A stretch of 10,722 nucleotides of DNA from a virus (IMGVR_UViG_2531839662_000041:1-10722), one strand, 5' to 3'; positions 5,132 to 10,722 are shown, numbered from the stretch's first letter. Notes: generated from the letters alone by a model not told the origin. Numbers and translations: made by a program.

Positions 5132-6091
5132 ATGAATATTTCCGATATTCGCGCAGGACTGCGCACGCTTGTAGAAAATGGAGAAACCACGCTGACACGC
5201 ATCGCCAGTGAATCAGGCGTGGCCCTGAGCACAGTCAGTGGTTTTGTGAATGATAAATATAACGGCAACATGGAATCAGTCGGGCGCACACTGGAACGCT
5301 GGCTGGAAAACTATCACCGCGCAGAAGAACTGCCGGAACCCCCGCGTTTTGTGGAAACTGCAACAGCCCGTCAAATCTGGACAAGTATGCGTTTTGCTAA
5401 TCTGACCGGAACCATTGCTGTTATCTGCGGTAATCCAGGAGTGGGTAAAAGCGAAGCAGCCCGTGAATTTTGTCGCACTAATAATAATGTCTGGATGATC
5501 ACCATTGCGCCATCCCGTGCCAGTACGCTGGAATGTCTGACTGAACTTGCCGAAGAGTTGGGAATGAATAATGCACCATGTCGCAAAGGACCGCTTTCCC
5601 GTAACCTGCGTCGCCGCCTGAAAGGAACGCAGGGACTGGTCATTGTTGACGAAGCTGATCACCTTGACACCGAAGCGCTGGAAGAGCTCCGTCTGTTACA
5701 GGAGTCCGCCTGTATTGGTCTTGTTCTGATGGGGAATCACCGTGTTTATTCAAATATGACCGCTAATGGCGACAGAACAATTGAGTTTGCCCGTCTGTTT
5801 TCCCGTATTGCAAAGCGCACAGCAATTAATAAAACCAAAGAAGACGATGTAAACGCAATTGCGGATGCCTGGCAGATTACCGGGAAAAATGAACGGGAAT
5901 TATTACAGCAGATTGCACAAACGCCTGGTGCGCTCCGCATTATGAATCAAACGCTGCGCCTTGCTGTTATGAATGCCTTCGGTAAAGGCGAACGTGTTAA
6001 TGAGGATTATCTGCGTGAGGCTTACAAAGAGTTAGACCAGGACGTTGATGTTTCGATGCTGCTGGGTGTGCAAGGGGATGCTGAATCATGA
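5132..6091 (+). CDS. B: Mu B-type AAA+ ATPase (target DNA activator for transposition), 319 aa
   Basis: N-terminus [16 protein letters not shown] and most of the protein closely match MuB as I recall it. Walker A GNPGVGKS and Walker [11 protein letters not shown] are present. GAGG Shine-Dalgarno 8 nt upstream of the ATG. Confidence 0.95.
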
Positions 6092-6315
6092 TGTCACGGA
6101 ATATCAAAATGGCGACGGAAGTAAAGACCTGGTTACAGGAGCGCGGCAGCCACGTCAACGAATCCTGGCTGGGCGTGGCCCGCCCGGTGCTTGAAATTAC
6201 CTGCCCGCCACCGGAGCTGGTCAGAAACGCTGTCAGGATTATGGAGCATAAATCAGGGGTTGCCCGTTCCGTATGGACGGCCCGCCTTAATGGTTGCCAG
6301 ATTATCTGGCGTTAA
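6088..6315 (+). CDS. kil: Small early protein in the kil position (75 aa); putative Kil-like host-killing / cell-division inhibitor
   Basis: The start codon overlaps the B stop (ATGA at 6088-6091), which suggests translational coupling. The size (75 aa) and position immediately after B match Mu kil (~74 aa as I recall). I cannot confirm sequence identity from memory, so this call is positional. Confidence 0.5.
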
Positions 6316-6637: not shown

Positions 6638-7057
6638 ATGAAAGCCAAAATCAGAAACGAAATTCAGGCATTAATTCGGATTAAAGAGCGTAATAGCAAT
6701 GGTGGAGACTTGCGCGAATTTATTTGCGCGCGCGAAGTTGAGGGATATGGCGAAAAGACTTACCTGATTGCATTCGACCATTACAGCATTTGTGCGCGTT
6801 ATTGCGGGGAGGCGGTATTCCGCGCCATTACGTTTGGCAATGCCTTCAATGTGGATTTATGGGAATACGTCATGGACCGTGAATACATCAGCGCGTCAGA
6901 CCCGGACGCACGGGAGCAGTGGCAGAACATCTGGCGCGATTACCGGCAAATGGCGAAAGGCTGGACGCAGGGGACGTATTCTTCCCTTGCCCTGAAAGCG
7001 GTTCAGTTATCGCTGCGGCATGTTCCGTCAGTACGGTTTGAACTTGCGGTGCACTGA
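6638..7057 (+). CDS. Hypothetical early-region protein (139 aa), Cys/His-containing
   Basis: ATG start with GGAA 8 nt upstream. It sits in the same-strand operon-like run between B and gam. Contains a C-x-...-HYSICARYCGE cluster that might bind a metal. Function unknown. Confidence 0.55.
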   Translation: MKAKIRNEIQALIRIKERNSNGGDLREFICAREVEGYGEKTYLIAFDHYSICARYCGEAVFRAITFGNAFNVDLWEYVMDREYISASDPDAREQWQNIWRDYRQMAKGWTQGTYSSLALKAVQLSLRHVPSVRFELAVH

Positions 7058-7074
7058 TACAGGAGGGCGACATC

Positions 7075-7363
7075 ATGATACCCCCTCGTAAAAGATGGTC
7101 ACGTGAAGACCGGGAATTTATCGAAGCCAGTGTCGGGAAAATGACTGTTGAAGAAATGGCGAAAAAAACTGAACGTTGCCCCAACCGCCCTACAGGCACA
7201 TGCCAGAAGACACGGAATATCGTTGTGTGCATACCGGGTCAGTGAGCACGACAAATATTTGTGTCGTGAACTTTATAAAGAAGGGCTGGATATTCATGTC
7301 ATTACCCAAAAGATGGAATTAAGCAATCGTGCTGTATCCAGCATTGTATACAGCGAATATTAA
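7075..7363 (+). pseudogene. Frameshifted (or slippage-dependent) helix-turn-helix early gene: frame 1 (7075-7248) and frame 2 (to 7363) join at an A7 tract (7162-7168)
   Basis: A strong AGGAGG Shine-Dalgarno 8 nt upstream of the ATG at 7075 opens a reading frame giving MIPPRKRWSREDREFIEASVGKMTVEEMAKK, after which the translation becomes unprotein-like (TERCPNRPTGTCQKTRNIVVCIPGQ) and stops at 7248. The +1 frame from the A7 run gives LNVAPTALQAHARRHGISLCAYRVSEHDKYLCRELYKEGLDIHVITQKMELSNRAVSSIVYSEY. Joined, ...TVEEMAKKLNVAPTALQAHARRHGISL forms a textbook helix-turn-helix. Removing one A from the A7 run restores a single ~95-aa ORF. Confidence 0.6.
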
Positions 7364-7383
7364 TTAACAGGAGCTTTATTTAT

Positions 7384-7908
7384 ATGGCTAAACCAGCAAA
7401 ACGAATCAAGAATGCCGCAGCGGCTTATGTTCCACAGTCCCGCGATGCCGTGGTATGTGATATCCGCCGGATTGGTGACCTGCAACGCGAAGCGGCACGA
7501 CTTGAAACGGAAATGAATGACGCTATCGCTGAAATTACAGAGAAATACGCCTCACAGATTGCGCCGCTAAAAACCAGTATCGAAACCCTTTCAAAAGGCG
7601 TTCAGGGATGGTGTGAAGCGAACCGTGACGAACTGACGAACGGCGGCAAGGTGAAGACGGCGAACCTGGTAACCGGCGATGTGTCATGGCGTCAGCGCCC
7701 ACCATCGGTAAGTATTCGCGGTGTGGATGCGGTGATGGAAACACTGGAGCGTCTTGGCCTGCAACGCTTTATTCGCACGAAACAGGAAATCAACAAGGAA
7801 GCGATTTTACTGGAACCGAAAGCGGTCGCAGGTGTTGCCGGAATTACAGTTAAATCAGGCATTGAAGATTTTTCTATTATTCCGTTTGAACAGGAAGCCG
7901 GTATTTAA
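7384..7908 (+). CDS. gam: Gam, host-nuclease inhibitor / DNA-end-binding protein (Ku-like), 174 aa
   Basis: The translation MAKPAKRIKNAAAAYVPQSRDAV ... LETEMNDAIAEITEKYA ... GWCEANRDELTNGGKVKTANLVTGDVSWR ... FSIIPFEQEAGI is near-identical to Mu Gam as I recall it, and the same length (174 aa). AGGAG Shine-Dalgarno upstream. Confidence 0.93.
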   Translation: MAKPAKRIKNAAAAYVPQSRDAVVCDIRRIGDLQREAARLETEMNDAIAEITEKYASQIAPLKTSIETLSKGVQGWCEANRDELTNGGKVKTANLVTGDVSWRQRPPSVSIRGVDAVMETLERLGLQRFIRTKQEINKEAILLEPKAVAGVAGITVKSGIEDFSIIPFEQEAGI

Positions 7909-7950
7909 TATCACCATTAATATTTAATTAGTTCACTTTCTTTTAATTAT

Positions 7951-7980
7951 GGCGCGATGCGTCAGGGGATTGCTCGCGCC
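7951..7980. repeat. Inverted repeat GGCGCGA ... TCGCGCC (7-bp arms, 16-nt spacer) in the gam-downstream intergenic region
   Basis: Read directly from the sequence. No T-tract follows, so it is not a canonical intrinsic terminator. It could be an RNA stem-loop or a protein-binding site. Confidence 0.5.
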
Positions 7981-8006
7981 TGAAACAGATTACTGAGGAA
8001 TAAAAA

Positions 8007-8546
8007 ATGGTTGATGCAAAAGTTCTGAACGGTGTCAGTACATTATTACGGGCTTACGGACGTCTGACCTGTGGCGTTCTGGCGGAAAAAATGAATATGC
8101 CACCTTCTTCAATGGTGTATTTCCTGCGTGATGCGGTTGATGCCGGAGTTCTCACTGAATGCAACGGATTTTATGACGTTCCGCGCCCTCGTCCGACGCC
8201 GCCAGTAAGACGAAACGCAACGGAGCACCCCGCTGTTGATGATGCTCAATGGTGCGCTTTCCGCCGCTCTTTGCCCTGGCTGGAAGGCAATGCCATTCCG
8301 GCACTGGCAAAAGAATTTGCGACAGGCGTACTGACCTGCGAGTCGGTTTACATCGTTGCTGAAGTGGATGACGAGATGTGCAAACAGGGGATGCCCCGTT
8401 TTGTGATGGCGTATATCGATATCCGACTGGGACGTTTTATTTGTGGCTCCAGTGGCTGGAATATCACCGACCACGTCCTGCGCTATCTCATTCTTGATTA
8501 TTCACCGGTTCCGGCGGCAACACAGGATGTCAGCGAGCATGGTTAA
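8007..8546 (+). CDS. Hypothetical early-region protein (179 aa) with an N-terminal winged-helix-like segment and a Pro/Arg-rich linker
   Basis: ATG with GAGGAA Shine-Dalgarno 6 nt upstream. The N-terminal LRAYGRLTCGVLAEKMNMPPSSMVYFLRDAVDAGVLTE resembles a MarR/Lrp-type winged helix, followed by a PRPRPTPPVRR linker. Function unknown. Confidence 0.6.
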   Translation: MVDAKVLNGVSTLLRAYGRLTCGVLAEKMNMPPSSMVYFLRDAVDAGVLTECNGFYDVPRPRPTPPVRRNATEHPAVDDAQWCAFRRSLPWLEGNAIPALAKEFATGVLTCESVYIVAEVDDEMCKQGMPRFVMAYIDIRLGRFICGSSGWNITDHVLRYLILDYSPVPAATQDVSEHG

Positions 8547-8721
8547 GTCAATTGGCTTTGTCCTGCTGGTTGGTACTTGCGGGAATGATGCCTGTGATGC
8601 CATTCCGGTAACAGAAAAAATCTGGCCCACAGAACAGGCATGTATGCAGGTGATGGAGCGCATACAAAAACGTTATCCCAGTGAAATCTTTTATTGCGAA
8701 GAGGTATTAAGAAATGAATAA
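8527..8721 (+). CDS. Small hypothetical protein (about 60-64 aa) with a hydrophobic N-terminus; start uncertain (ATG at 8527 or 8539)
   Basis: The ORF-track entry 8443..8721 extends upstream in a frame that overlaps the previous gene. The plausible product is MSASMVKSIGFVLLVGTCGND... Its stop codon overlaps the start of the next ORF (ATG 8714 / TAA 8719-8721), suggesting coupling within the operon. Confidence 0.35.
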   Translation: MSASMVKSIGFVLLVGTCGNDACDAIPVTEKIWPTEQACMQVMERIQKRYPSEIFYCEEVLRNE

Positions 8722-9103
8722 CGCAGAGAAAAATGAAATTAAATCCGCATCCGCCAGCACCAGAAAGCATCTTCATGATTTTTATGTTGCCTATAACCAG
8801 TGGTTAAAAAATGGTGTACCAGAAACAGAGGGTGAAATATTTGTTCAATATTCAGGATTATGTACAAATGCTTGTCGTTATTTTGACGAAATCGGAGTGG
8901 ATACCGAAGATATATTAGAACAATTACGTGCAGATTTTATCGCGAACGAGTTGGATGAATTATTACCTTTCAATGAAAGTGGAACGCACTATCATGAGGA
9001 ATGCAGACTTGGCAGATGTCACCTGAATTCTGCTCGTGTGGCATGGGTCGAAAAACACTGCATTAAGGAGATGGGACATAATGAGCCGCACATCCCTGAT
9101 TAA
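8714..9103 (+). CDS. Hypothetical acidic Cys/His-rich protein (129 aa), encoded in a visibly AT-rich segment
   Basis: ATG at 8714 overlaps the preceding small ORF's stop. The translation is rich in D/E and carries C-x3-C (CTNAC) plus HYHEEC-x4-CH ... HC, possibly a zinc-binding fold. By hand count of three 60-bp blocks (8714-8893) G+C is about 40%, 37% and 28%, against roughly 50% in neighbouring genes. These are eye estimates. Confidence 0.6.
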   Translation: MNNAEKNEIKSASASTRKHLHDFYVAYNQWLKNGVPETEGEIFVQYSGLCTNACRYFDEIGVDTEDILEQLRADFIANELDELLPFNESGTHYHEECRLGRCHLNSARVAWVEKHCIKEMGHNEPHIPD

Positions 9104-9632
9104 ATTAATTCATGTCGCCCGTCGGGAATTGCAACTTGACGATGACACTTACCGCGCCTTTCTGGTGCAGTGCACGGGCAAAACCAGTTGCCGCGAGCTG
9201 TCCGTTGCACAACTGGAACGGGTGCTCGATGCCATGAAAGAGCGCGGTTTTAAGAAGCAGAAAAAACATCCCCGCCGTCGCTTTAAGGGGCATGTCACAC
9301 CACGCGAGAAGATTTACAAAATCTGGCAGCAGATGTTTCTTGATGGTTTCGTCTCCGATATCAGCGACGCCGCGCTGGACAAATACGTTGAACGCCTGAC
9401 GGCCAGACGTAATGGCGGTCAGGGTGTTTCCACGCTGGCCTGGTGTCACGGGGAATCGTTGCAGGTTGTGCTCGAAACGCTCAAACAGTGGCACATGCGC
9501 TGCATCCGTGAAGCCTTTGCCCGACATGGTGTGCCTTTACCTGTAAGCCCATCCGGGCGGGAACTGCGCGGCTATGATGCACTGACCAGTGCATATGCCC
9601 GCGCACGAAACAGCGGGAGAATTGCTGTATGA
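9081..9632 (+). CDS. gemA: GemA-like protein (Mu gp16 family, DUF1018), 183 aa
   Basis: The ORF-track entry begins at a GTG (9036). The likely start is the ATG at 9081 (MSRTSLIKLIHVARRELQLDDDTYRAFL...), with AGGAG 10 nt upstream. Position immediately upstream of mor, with an ATGA stop/start overlap into mor, matches Mu gemA-mor. Sequence identity is recalled with moderate certainty only. Confidence 0.7.
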   Translation: MSRTSLIKLIHVARRELQLDDDTYRAFLVQCTGKTSCRELSVAQLERVLDAMKERGFKKQKKHPRRRFKGHVTPREKIYKIWQQMFLDGFVSDISDAALDKYVERLTARRNGGQGVSTLAWCHGESLQVVLETLKQWHMRCIREAFARHGVPLPVSPSGRELRGYDALTSAYARARNSGRIAV

Positions 9633-10078
9633 AACAGATGAAAGAGCAGGATTTGTTCGAAGACCTTCGGGACGACAGCGTTCTGGAATATCTTCATGAT
9701 TACCAGGAAAACACCGCTTATCCGGCGTTACTTTCTGAACTGAACGCACTGCTGCGTAAAGAGCTGGCCCGGATTGGCGCAGACCCTGCCCATTCCCTTG
9801 AGCTGGTTGTGGCGATTTGTCGCCATATCGGCGGGATGCAGGTTTATGTTCCGAGGGGGAATATTCTGGAGAATCTTGTCCGGGATATGCGTATCTGGCG
9901 TGATTTTAACGGCCATAATATTCCTGAACTGGTTCAGCGTTACGGGGTGACGTATAAAACCGTCTACAAGGCCATCAAACGGATGCGACGTCTGGAGCGC
10001 AATAAATACCAGCCGGATTTGTTTTACCTCTCCCCGAACCTGCCTCACCCCGTTCGTCGTCCGCCACGACGCCCTTAA
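9629..10078 (+). CDS. mor: Mor-family middle-operon transcriptional activator (149 aa)
   Basis: DLFEDLRDDSVLEYL ... PALLSELNALLRKELARIGADPAHSLELVVAICRHIGGMQVYVPRG ... RDFNGHNIPELVQRYGVTYKTVYKAIKRMRRL parallels Mu Mor as I recall it (DLFGDLQDDTILAHL ... PALLAELNDLLRGELSRLGVDPAHSLEIVVAICKHLGGGQVYIPRG ... VYKAIRRMRRL). It has a C-terminal HTH. ATG overlaps the gemA stop. Confidence 0.9.
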   Translation: MKQMKEQDLFEDLRDDSVLEYLHDYQENTAYPALLSELNALLRKELARIGADPAHSLELVVAICRHIGGMQVYVPRGNILENLVRDMRIWRDFNGHNIPELVQRYGVTYKTVYKAIKRMRRLERNKYQPDLFYLSPNLPHPVRRPPRRP

Positions 10079-10164: not shown

Positions 10165-10722
10165 ATGGAAAATCTAAAATTATATCTGGCCTTTGAGCGT
10201 GCGCTGAATTTTATTCTGCGTCCTGATATCGAAGGCGTCTATGTCAATGACCCCACTGACCGTGGCGGAGAAACCAGGTACGGCATCTCTGACCGCCGCG
10301 ACGGTGTGATTGACGGCAAAACTGACGTCAACGGTGATGGTAAACCCGACACCCGCATTAAGGATTTTACCCGCGAACAGGTTGCGCAGATTTACTGGCG
10401 CGATTACTGGCTGCCTGCCGGGTGTGACCAGTGGCCTGACAGAGTGGCGCTTTTTGTGTTCGATGCGGCGGTTCAGCATGGTGTTAAAAAAGCCATCAAA
10501 CTTTTGCAGGAAGCCACTGATATCAATGCCGATGGCATCATCGGCCCGCGCACCCGCAGGGCCGTGAACCTGGCTGACCAGAACTGGTTGCTGACCCGCT
10601 GTATTGTCCGTCGTTCCCGCTTTTATGCCGAAATCATCAAATCAAAACCCGCCCAGGGCAAATACCTGAACGGCTGGTTTAACCGCATGGAAAAACTGAC
10701 CGACGCCTGTCTGGAAATCATC
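10165..10722 (+). CDS. GH108-family lysozyme-like protein with peptidoglycan-binding domain (5' partial; 186 codons, runs off the window)
   Basis: Not in the supplied ORF track because no stop codon occurs before the window end. The ATG at 10165 has AGGTG upstream. The translation MENLKLYLAFERALNFILRPDIEGVYVNDPTDRGGETRYGIS ... DFTREQVAQIYWRDYWLPAGCDQWPDRVALFVFDAAVQHGVKKAIKLLQEATDINADGIIGPRTRRAV carries the GH108 signature (EGGY-like VNDP-DRGG-T-YGI, FD-AVN-G) and the PG_binding_3 motif (DGIIGP-T). I translated all 186 codons by hand and found no stop. Confidence 0.8.
   Translation, partial: MENLKLYLAFERALNFILRPDIEGVYVNDPTDRGGETRYGISDRRDGVIDGKTDVNGDGKPDTRIKDFTREQVAQIYWRDYWLPAGCDQWPDRVALFVFDAAVQHGVKKAIKLLQEATDINADGIIGPRTRRAVNLADQNWLLTRCIVRRSRFYAEIIKSKPAQGKYLNGWFNRMEKLTDACLEII

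Follow-up and report, generated by a model that had tools for sequence, protein, structure and literature searches.

To judge from genome comparisons, a gene of 129 codons in the early region of a Mu-type prophage, at positions 8714–9103 of the 10,722-nucleotide stretch of DNA analysed here (the window), belongs, as a mobile accessory gene, to the Mu-type early operon. The alignments show, at the level of sequence, that recombination has placed an AT-rich cassette in-frame between the opening ~10 codons of a gp14-type gene and the start of gemA. The cassette encodes a domain that is also found in gp3 of phage N4. The family is one that is already catalogued in PHROGs, though uncharacterised, and the 129-aa gene adds to it a member carried as an accessory cassette. 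A host-takeover or anti-defence role of the protein is plausible from its genomic context; to the reading of the protein as a host-directed effector, taken as a whole, we would give about an even chance.

In E. coli UMNF18 (NZ_AGTD01000001), the window has a match of 100%. The left end of the prophage is about 126–129 bp upstream of the treA start codon, so that the prophage lies within the intergenic region upstream of treA, whose regulation might be affected by the insertion. The early operon has the order repressor gene c, ner, the transposase genes A and B, a Kil-like gene, and the gp7, gp8 and gp9 homologues, followed by gam. The layout is as follows.

treA, minus strand, beside the prophage left end
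1827–1870, Mu-type left end, starting at 1827, with the sequence TGTATTGATTCACTTGAAGTACG, also TGTATTGATTCACTTGAAGTACGAAAAAAA
7384–7908, gam
8007–8546, gp11 homologue
8539–8721, plus strand, 60-aa ORF (phrog_16556; in RefSeq)
8714–9103, plus strand, 129-aa ORF, from ATG to TAA (RefSeq WP_001057678.1)
8714–8744, plus strand, 5′ recombination junction: the first ~10 codons (MNNAEKNEIK), from the resident gp14-type gene
8745–9077, plus strand, imported cassette of 333 bp and 40.5% GC, encoding residues 11–121
9081–9103, plus strand, 3′ end of the 129-aa gene: its last 7 codons and stop are the conserved 5′ end of gemA, read out of frame
9081–9632, plus strand, gemA (gp16 family; Pfam GemA, 8.6e-33; in RefSeq)
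9629–10078, mor

The preliminary description of this DNA had placed the 129-aa ORF between gam and gemA. It does adjoin gemA; on the other side, however, the gp11 homologue and the 60-aa ORF intervene after gam. Two further observations concern the prophage at large. The homologue of Mu gp9 (a D5-like regulator, phrog_323) is broken into the overlapping ORFs 7075–7245 and 7148–7363, and RefSeq treats it (7075–7363) as a frameshifted pseudogene. A glycoside hydrolase family 108 endolysin is encoded 3′ of mor (window 10165–10722; L002 10766–11353). Since this endolysin stands where Mu has the gp18–gp21 block and its lysozyme, the prophage is mosaic well outside the early region.

The 129-aa ORF is evidently a real gene, because its product has profile matches down to 1e-41 and because dN/dS is 0.27–0.30 between it and an 82%-identical variant in another prophage. 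RefSeq lists the product, in E. coli UMNF18, as a hypothetical protein. The gene is interlocked with both neighbours. From its ATG onward, it shares 8 nt (ATGAATAA) with the end of the 60-aa ORF, stop included, and the ATG of gemA (9081) falls within its 3′ end, by 23 nt; a Shine-Dalgarno-like GAGG is positioned 9 nt 5′ of its own ATG, and an AAGGAG (9065–9070) 10 nt 5′ of that of gemA. From the overlaps and these Shine-Dalgarno-like sites, we infer that translation of the gene is coupled to that of its neighbours. The interval from 8400 to 9400 contains no promoter-like site and no plus-strand terminator-like site, and no Rfam family matches the region of the gene. As the preliminary description had supposed from such coupling, the gene would be transcribed and translated with the early operon. 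The strict mark of a moron, a promoter and terminator of its own, is thus absent from a gene that overlaps both neighbours. The other mark, deviant composition together with presence/absence polymorphism, is found: the GC content is 40.5% against 49–53%, and the gene occurs in 14 genomes versus ~55.

The deviation in composition, also pointed out earlier, is borne out by measurement. The GC content is 35.0% over 8714–8893, 42.9% over 8894–9103 and 39.2% for the whole gene, and windows of 390 bp that are equally AT-rich make up only 4.6% of the prophage part. The GC3 of the gene, 33.1%, is the minimum among all prophage genes in the window. For the neighbours, the GC content is 52.2% (gp11-like gene) and 54.9% (gemA), while the 60-aa ORF, at 42.6%, is also low. 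In the prophage part, just one other island is strongly AT-rich, the c/ner operator region (2380–2774), where windows of 390 bp go down to 34.9% GC, so that a low GC content by itself does not set the 129-aa gene apart.

The 60-aa ORF has a hydrophobic N-terminus (MVKSIGFVLLVGTC) and four Cys residues, and corresponds to Mu gp13 in size and position. As a gp13-like protein it was rejected, since a comparison with Mu gp13 shows no homology. It varies in presence among prophages independently of the 129-aa gene, as follows from the prophage L004 (TD225-C4), which has the 129-aa gene and lacks the 60-aa ORF.

The limits of the imported piece come from a related prophage, that of RIVM_C019217 (L003). 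The DNA homology between the two, at 94%, runs up to 8744, breaks, and restarts at 9078, from which it follows that the imported piece is 8745–9077. L003 has the 60-aa ORF and then gp14- and gp15-type genes; in related Mu-like prophages, the slot of the cassette is filled by most of gp14 and by the minus-strand gp15. The gp14-type gene of L003 begins MNKPENKEMK, and its DNA identity with the window continues to 8744. At the other junction, the alignment gives identity of the window with both Mu and L003 from about 9078 onward; the Shine-Dalgarno sequence AAGGAG of gemA is supplied by the cassette. The 40.5% GC of the cassette is set against 48.9% and 53.3% in the flanks and resembles that of the lytic phages that carry homologues (~39%). 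Among complete E. coli genomes, the 129-aa gene is present in 14, compared with ~55 that have the flanking sequence, that is, in about a quarter. The separate horizontal acquisition suggested by the preliminary description is therefore upheld, by the breaks at 8744 and 9078, by the genome counts and by the composition of the cassette.

The relation to phage Mu itself is as follows. In Mu, the interval from gp11 to gemA consists of gp12, gp13, gp14 and the minus-strand gp15. DNA homology of the window to Mu ends at 8518 and is back at 9078; the gp12-gp13-gp14-gp15 block (Mu 6936–8229, L001) is missing, and the segment 8519–9077 holds the 60-aa ORF and the 129-aa gene instead. The 129-aa gene shares its slot and its operon with gp14 and gp15 (and with gp12 and gp13) of this semi-essential early region, and its first ~10 codons are of the gp14 type, but its product has neither sequence nor profile similarity to gp12, gp14 or gp15. 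Homology to these three proteins was rejected, given BLASTP E values above 1 and hhalign probabilities of the family profile of at most 0.2%, and the statement that this is not a known Mu protein stands.

A second Mu-like prophage points the same way. In its gp12 slot is a gene for a protein of 231 aa (P0156; L013 8001–8696, L014 7025–7720), in which a 55-aa N-terminus, the domain and Mu gp13 are joined in-frame. The P0156 domain is the closest relative of the window protein, at 57% identity. Its gp13 part is 94% identical to genuine Mu gp13 over 54 residues and has a Cys-rich, zinc-ribbon-like tail. As P0156 represents a second graft, here onto gp13, the Mu early region has received the domain in-frame on at least two occasions. 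On such comparisons, the gp12–gp15 part of the Mu early region is evidently a hotspot of gene replacement.

In PHROGs, the 129-aa protein matches phrog_6418 (8.2e-41) and phrog_2510 (5.4e-31), both annotated as function unknown. The homologous region spans residues ~15–118, a domain of ~100 aa encoded by the cassette. Of the cluster representatives retrieved by an exhaustive HMMER search, 683 reach E ≤ 1e-3 and 136 reach E ≤ 1e-10; wherever a source gives a name, it is "hypothetical protein". No match was found to the window protein in Pfam, NCBIfam or PADLOC (for PADLOC at E ≤ 1, its models being of defence proteins and not of anti-defence proteins), nor in Pfam to any of 110 relatives. In these libraries, defence-related and anti-restriction models likewise gave no match to the 129-aa protein. 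Against PDB sequences, both the single protein and the family profile returned noise only, with E about 1. Together, the counts of presence and absence in E. coli genomes and the profile searches, both of a kind proposed in the preliminary description, identify a polymorphic accessory gene of the phrog_6418/phrog_2510 family, and not a conserved core gene of Mu.

Among the family members is gp3 of N4 (YP_950481.1), whose gene stands third in the early region of that phage. The protein matches the family profile with an hhalign probability of 99.5% and an E value of 2.6e-23; over the 99 columns of the match, identity is 32%. It has in common with the window protein the motifs FY-AY--W, GLC-N, LPFN, E and CHLN--R--WV. 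In N4-like phages of Caballeronia and from a metagenome, the homologue is encoded just 3′ of the gp1/gp2 homologues and 5′ of the RNAPII genes. N4 gp3 has the same domain as the window protein and is likewise encoded in an early region; in that lytic podovirus, however, the gene is fixed and syntenic, whereas the window protein is the product of a polymorphic cassette and carries ~10 foreign N-terminal residues and 7 out-of-frame C-terminal ones. In the papers searched, there is no mention of the protein, of the PHROGs or of a function for N4 gp3, and the passages searched of two phage Tn-seq preprints hold nothing relevant to the family.

By tblastn, homologues are found in 229 phage records. 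The phages include rV5/phAPEC8-like myoviruses; N4-like podoviruses of Escherichia, Erwinia, Achromobacter and Klebsiella; phages of ~43–48 kb, presumably T1-like, of Escherichia, Salmonella, Shigella and Klebsiella; Rhizobium phages; and a Burkholderia jumbo phage. Among 72,556 plasmids, there is a single match, to a P1/SSU5-like phage-plasmid, and an association with plasmid leading regions was rejected on that account. As far as sequence searches reach, these matches show the domain to be phage-restricted. In every genomic context examined, the location is an early or accessory region. The lytic phage phAPEC8 (L005) encodes the domain four times, in paralogues scattered within 12 kb of small early genes, as follows.

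2007–2291, 5230–5541, 6001–6300 and 8947–9234 of phAPEC8 (L005), the four paralogues

The domain is also multiplied and combined within single proteins. Two or three tandem copies are present in 11 of 154 family proteins, and every copy in the tandem proteins retains the conserved polar residues. Recurring partners in fusions are the small modules phrog_60, phrog_660, phrog_5117 and phrog_3323, which have no assigned function. In P0026, encoded upstream of a lysis cassette, the domain is fused to a Lar restriction-alleviation domain (41.2 bits against a cutoff of 39.6), and another member is fused to a dATP/dGTP pyrophosphohydrolase and DUF7415, in a prophage early region beside KilA-N and ExoVIII/RecT. 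Each of these two fusions was seen once among the 150 proteins examined, and functions that are joined in modular phage proteins are unrelated to each other. On a phage-like contig of 164 kb (L016; 8037–8489 and 10966–11712), a NADAR-domain gene and an AcrVA2-like gene are found only a few kb from the family member, which thus sits among candidate counter-defence genes.

The fusion to Lar invites comparison with the Lar/Ral proteins (TIGR03655, PF14354), which, like the 129-aa protein, are small early proteins of temperate phages. Lar, however, is a small Cys4 module of the zinc-ribbon type, whereas the 129-aa protein is predicted to be a five-helix bundle and has no match to TIGR03655 or PF14354. 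Similarly, the family resembles the polyvalent or modular accessory proteins of phages and conjugative elements (Iyer et al. 2017, PMC5512222) in that, in prophage early regions, the domain is found among small modules strung together with Pro/Ala-rich linkers; the 129-aa protein itself has a single domain. In the passages of that article that were searched, neither N4 gp3 nor the domain is treated.

The domain is predicted to be all-alpha, with the same fold across members. With an alignment of 110 sequences, AF2 gives a model with a pLDDT of 86.9 and a pTM of 0.78, compared with a pLDDT of 48 from 5 close sequences. The model has five helices, as follows.

Residues 3–32, 49–60, 65–77, 90–98 and 106–116, α-helices of the AF2 model

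A Foldseek search of BFVD with this model finds only uncharacterised members of the family (TM 0.66–0.73, E down to 5.5e-7), and there is no match among the solved folds in the PDB; the fold is thus one that has no detectable solved relative.

The zinc-binding arrangement that the preliminary description considered possible concerns the Cys and His residues of the protein. The 129-aa protein is acidic, with 23 D+E against 12 K+R, a net charge of −11 and a pI of 5.08, and has 5 Cys and 8 His. The strings reported earlier are all present, namely C50-TNA-C54, H92-Y-H94-EE-C97-RLGR-C102-H103 and H115-C116. Their conservation, in an alignment of 166 domain copies, is as follows. Invariant or nearly so are C50 (166/166), P85, F86, N105 (164/165), R108 (164/164), W30 and G48; conserved at 90% or more are L20, F23, Y24, Y27, G34, F43, L49, F75, E96 (91%) and W111, and at 80–89% N52 (85%), N87 and Y93. 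The window protein has all of W30, G48, C50, P85, F86, E96, N105 and R108. Among the proposed ligands, in contrast, C54 is conserved in 6% of copies, H94 in 9%, C97 in 20%, H92 in 20% and C116 in 21%. C102 is found in 65%, being replaced otherwise mainly by M, T, A and V, as would be expected of a buried residue. H103 is found in 75% and is Y in another 16%, so that H or Y occupies the position in 91%.

Since only C50 is invariant among the proposed ligands, a four-ligand zinc site does not define the family, and the zinc arrangement does not hold up as the functional basis of the protein. C50 itself does matter, because it is invariant and is kept in every tandem copy. A zinc site might still exist in some lineages. 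In the Mu-prophage clade, the seven residues C50, H92, C97, C102, H103, H115 and C116 are all invariant, and C50, C97, C102 and H103 are common to this clade and N4 gp3; the Mu-prophage subclade and N4 gp3 may therefore share a lineage-specific metal site made of these four. It could then be argued that the 129-aa protein is a small acidic zinc protein, in which C50, C97, C102 and H103 (possibly also H92, H115 and C116) bind a structural zinc, and which inhibits a host protein, e.g., a restriction enzyme. The net charge of −11 and the combination of C97, C102 and H103 in 15 of 168 copies fit this proposal. Yet most members lack the four-ligand set, 25 copies have C50 and neither C102 nor H103, the substitutes at position 102 fit a buried residue, and no known zinc-binding Pfam model or PDB fold matches the protein (nor, for Pfam, any of the 110 relatives). 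Moreover, the family is only mildly acidic: a net negative charge is found in 79% of copies, the medians being −3 for charge and 5.6 for pI, and the window protein is at the acidic end. We consider this explanation unlikely.

The same mild acidity bears on another class of early proteins. The DNA mimics Ocr and ArdA are expressed early and are net acidic, with a charge of roughly −25 to −30. The 129-aa protein is likewise early and acidic, but its charge is only −11. A DNA mimic of the Ocr/ArdA type was rejected, given the mild acidity of the family and the lack of any sequence or fold match in the PDB.

Conserved across the family, along with C50, is a set of polar residues. From their positions at helix ends and in loops, we infer that they form one pocket. 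We propose that the 129-aa protein would be a cytoplasmic early effector acting on a host component, in host takeover or counter-defence, and that it would act through this conserved polar site, in which C50, at the N-terminus of helix 2, would be joined by N52, E96, H/Y103, N105 and R108. The target of the site would be a conserved ligand or protein, which it would either bind or modify by thiol chemistry, in a mode that would be neither that of a classical zinc finger nor that of a DNA mimic. The signs of a host-directed role are the early and accessory position, the paralogues of phAPEC8, the tandem copies, the fusions to Lar and to the pyrophosphohydrolase, and the NADAR-domain and AcrVA2-like neighbours.

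One could go further and regard the protein as an enzyme, with C50 as the catalytic nucleophile, H103 and E96 in an assisting role, and N105 and R108 to position it, and with a substrate that is either a small molecule (e.g., a nucleotide-derived signal) or a host macromolecule, modified covalently. The presence of C50 in 166 of 166 copies at less than 35% overall identity, with near-invariant E, N, R and H/Y, looks more like an active site than a binding surface, and one fusion is to a nucleotide pyrophosphohydrolase. On the other hand, H103 is Y in 16% of copies and missing in others, a five-helix bundle of ~100 aa resembles no known thiol enzyme fold, and tandem arrays in which all copies are intact look more like binding modules. 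An enzymatic function thus seems improbable to us as well.

The main rival to the host-directed reading, a function internal to the phage (e.g., as a cofactor of early transcription or replication), is suggested by the synteny of gp3 with the RNAPII cofactors gp1/gp2 in N4-like phages, but it is very unlikely, as the domain spans phages that transcribe and replicate in unrelated ways (Mu-like, lambdoid, T1-like, rV5/phAPEC8-like and jumbo), varies in presence among Mu-like prophages that are nearly identical, occurs as up to four paralogues per genome, and has a net negative charge that argues against nucleic-acid binding.

If the host-directed reading is right, it is tempting to extend it. 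The family might be a new class of early effectors, with a fold that has no solved relative and an invariant-Cys pocket that would neutralise a conserved component of the bacterium, or an immune signal, by acting as an enzyme or a sponge; phages would shuffle the domain as an in-frame cassette and, in the course of an arms race, expand it to paralogues and tandem arrays. We put this forward as a speculation of doubtful standing.

As an event, the 129-aa gene is an ordinary case of accessory-gene exchange in a phage early operon, and its value lies in the family. The latter, with no fewer than 683 sequence clusters, is found in Mu-like, lambdoid, N4-like, T1-like, rV5/phAPEC8-like and jumbo phages of Proteobacteria. 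It is a large family that has no Pfam model and no solved structural relative, yet has a sharply defined conserved site of a Cys and polar residues. Tractable systems are at hand in N4 gp3 and in the Mu-like prophages that differ only by the cassette, which are natural near-isogenic pairs. The in-frame grafts onto the start of gp14 and onto gp13, for their part, show the domain moving between phages without expression signals of its own.
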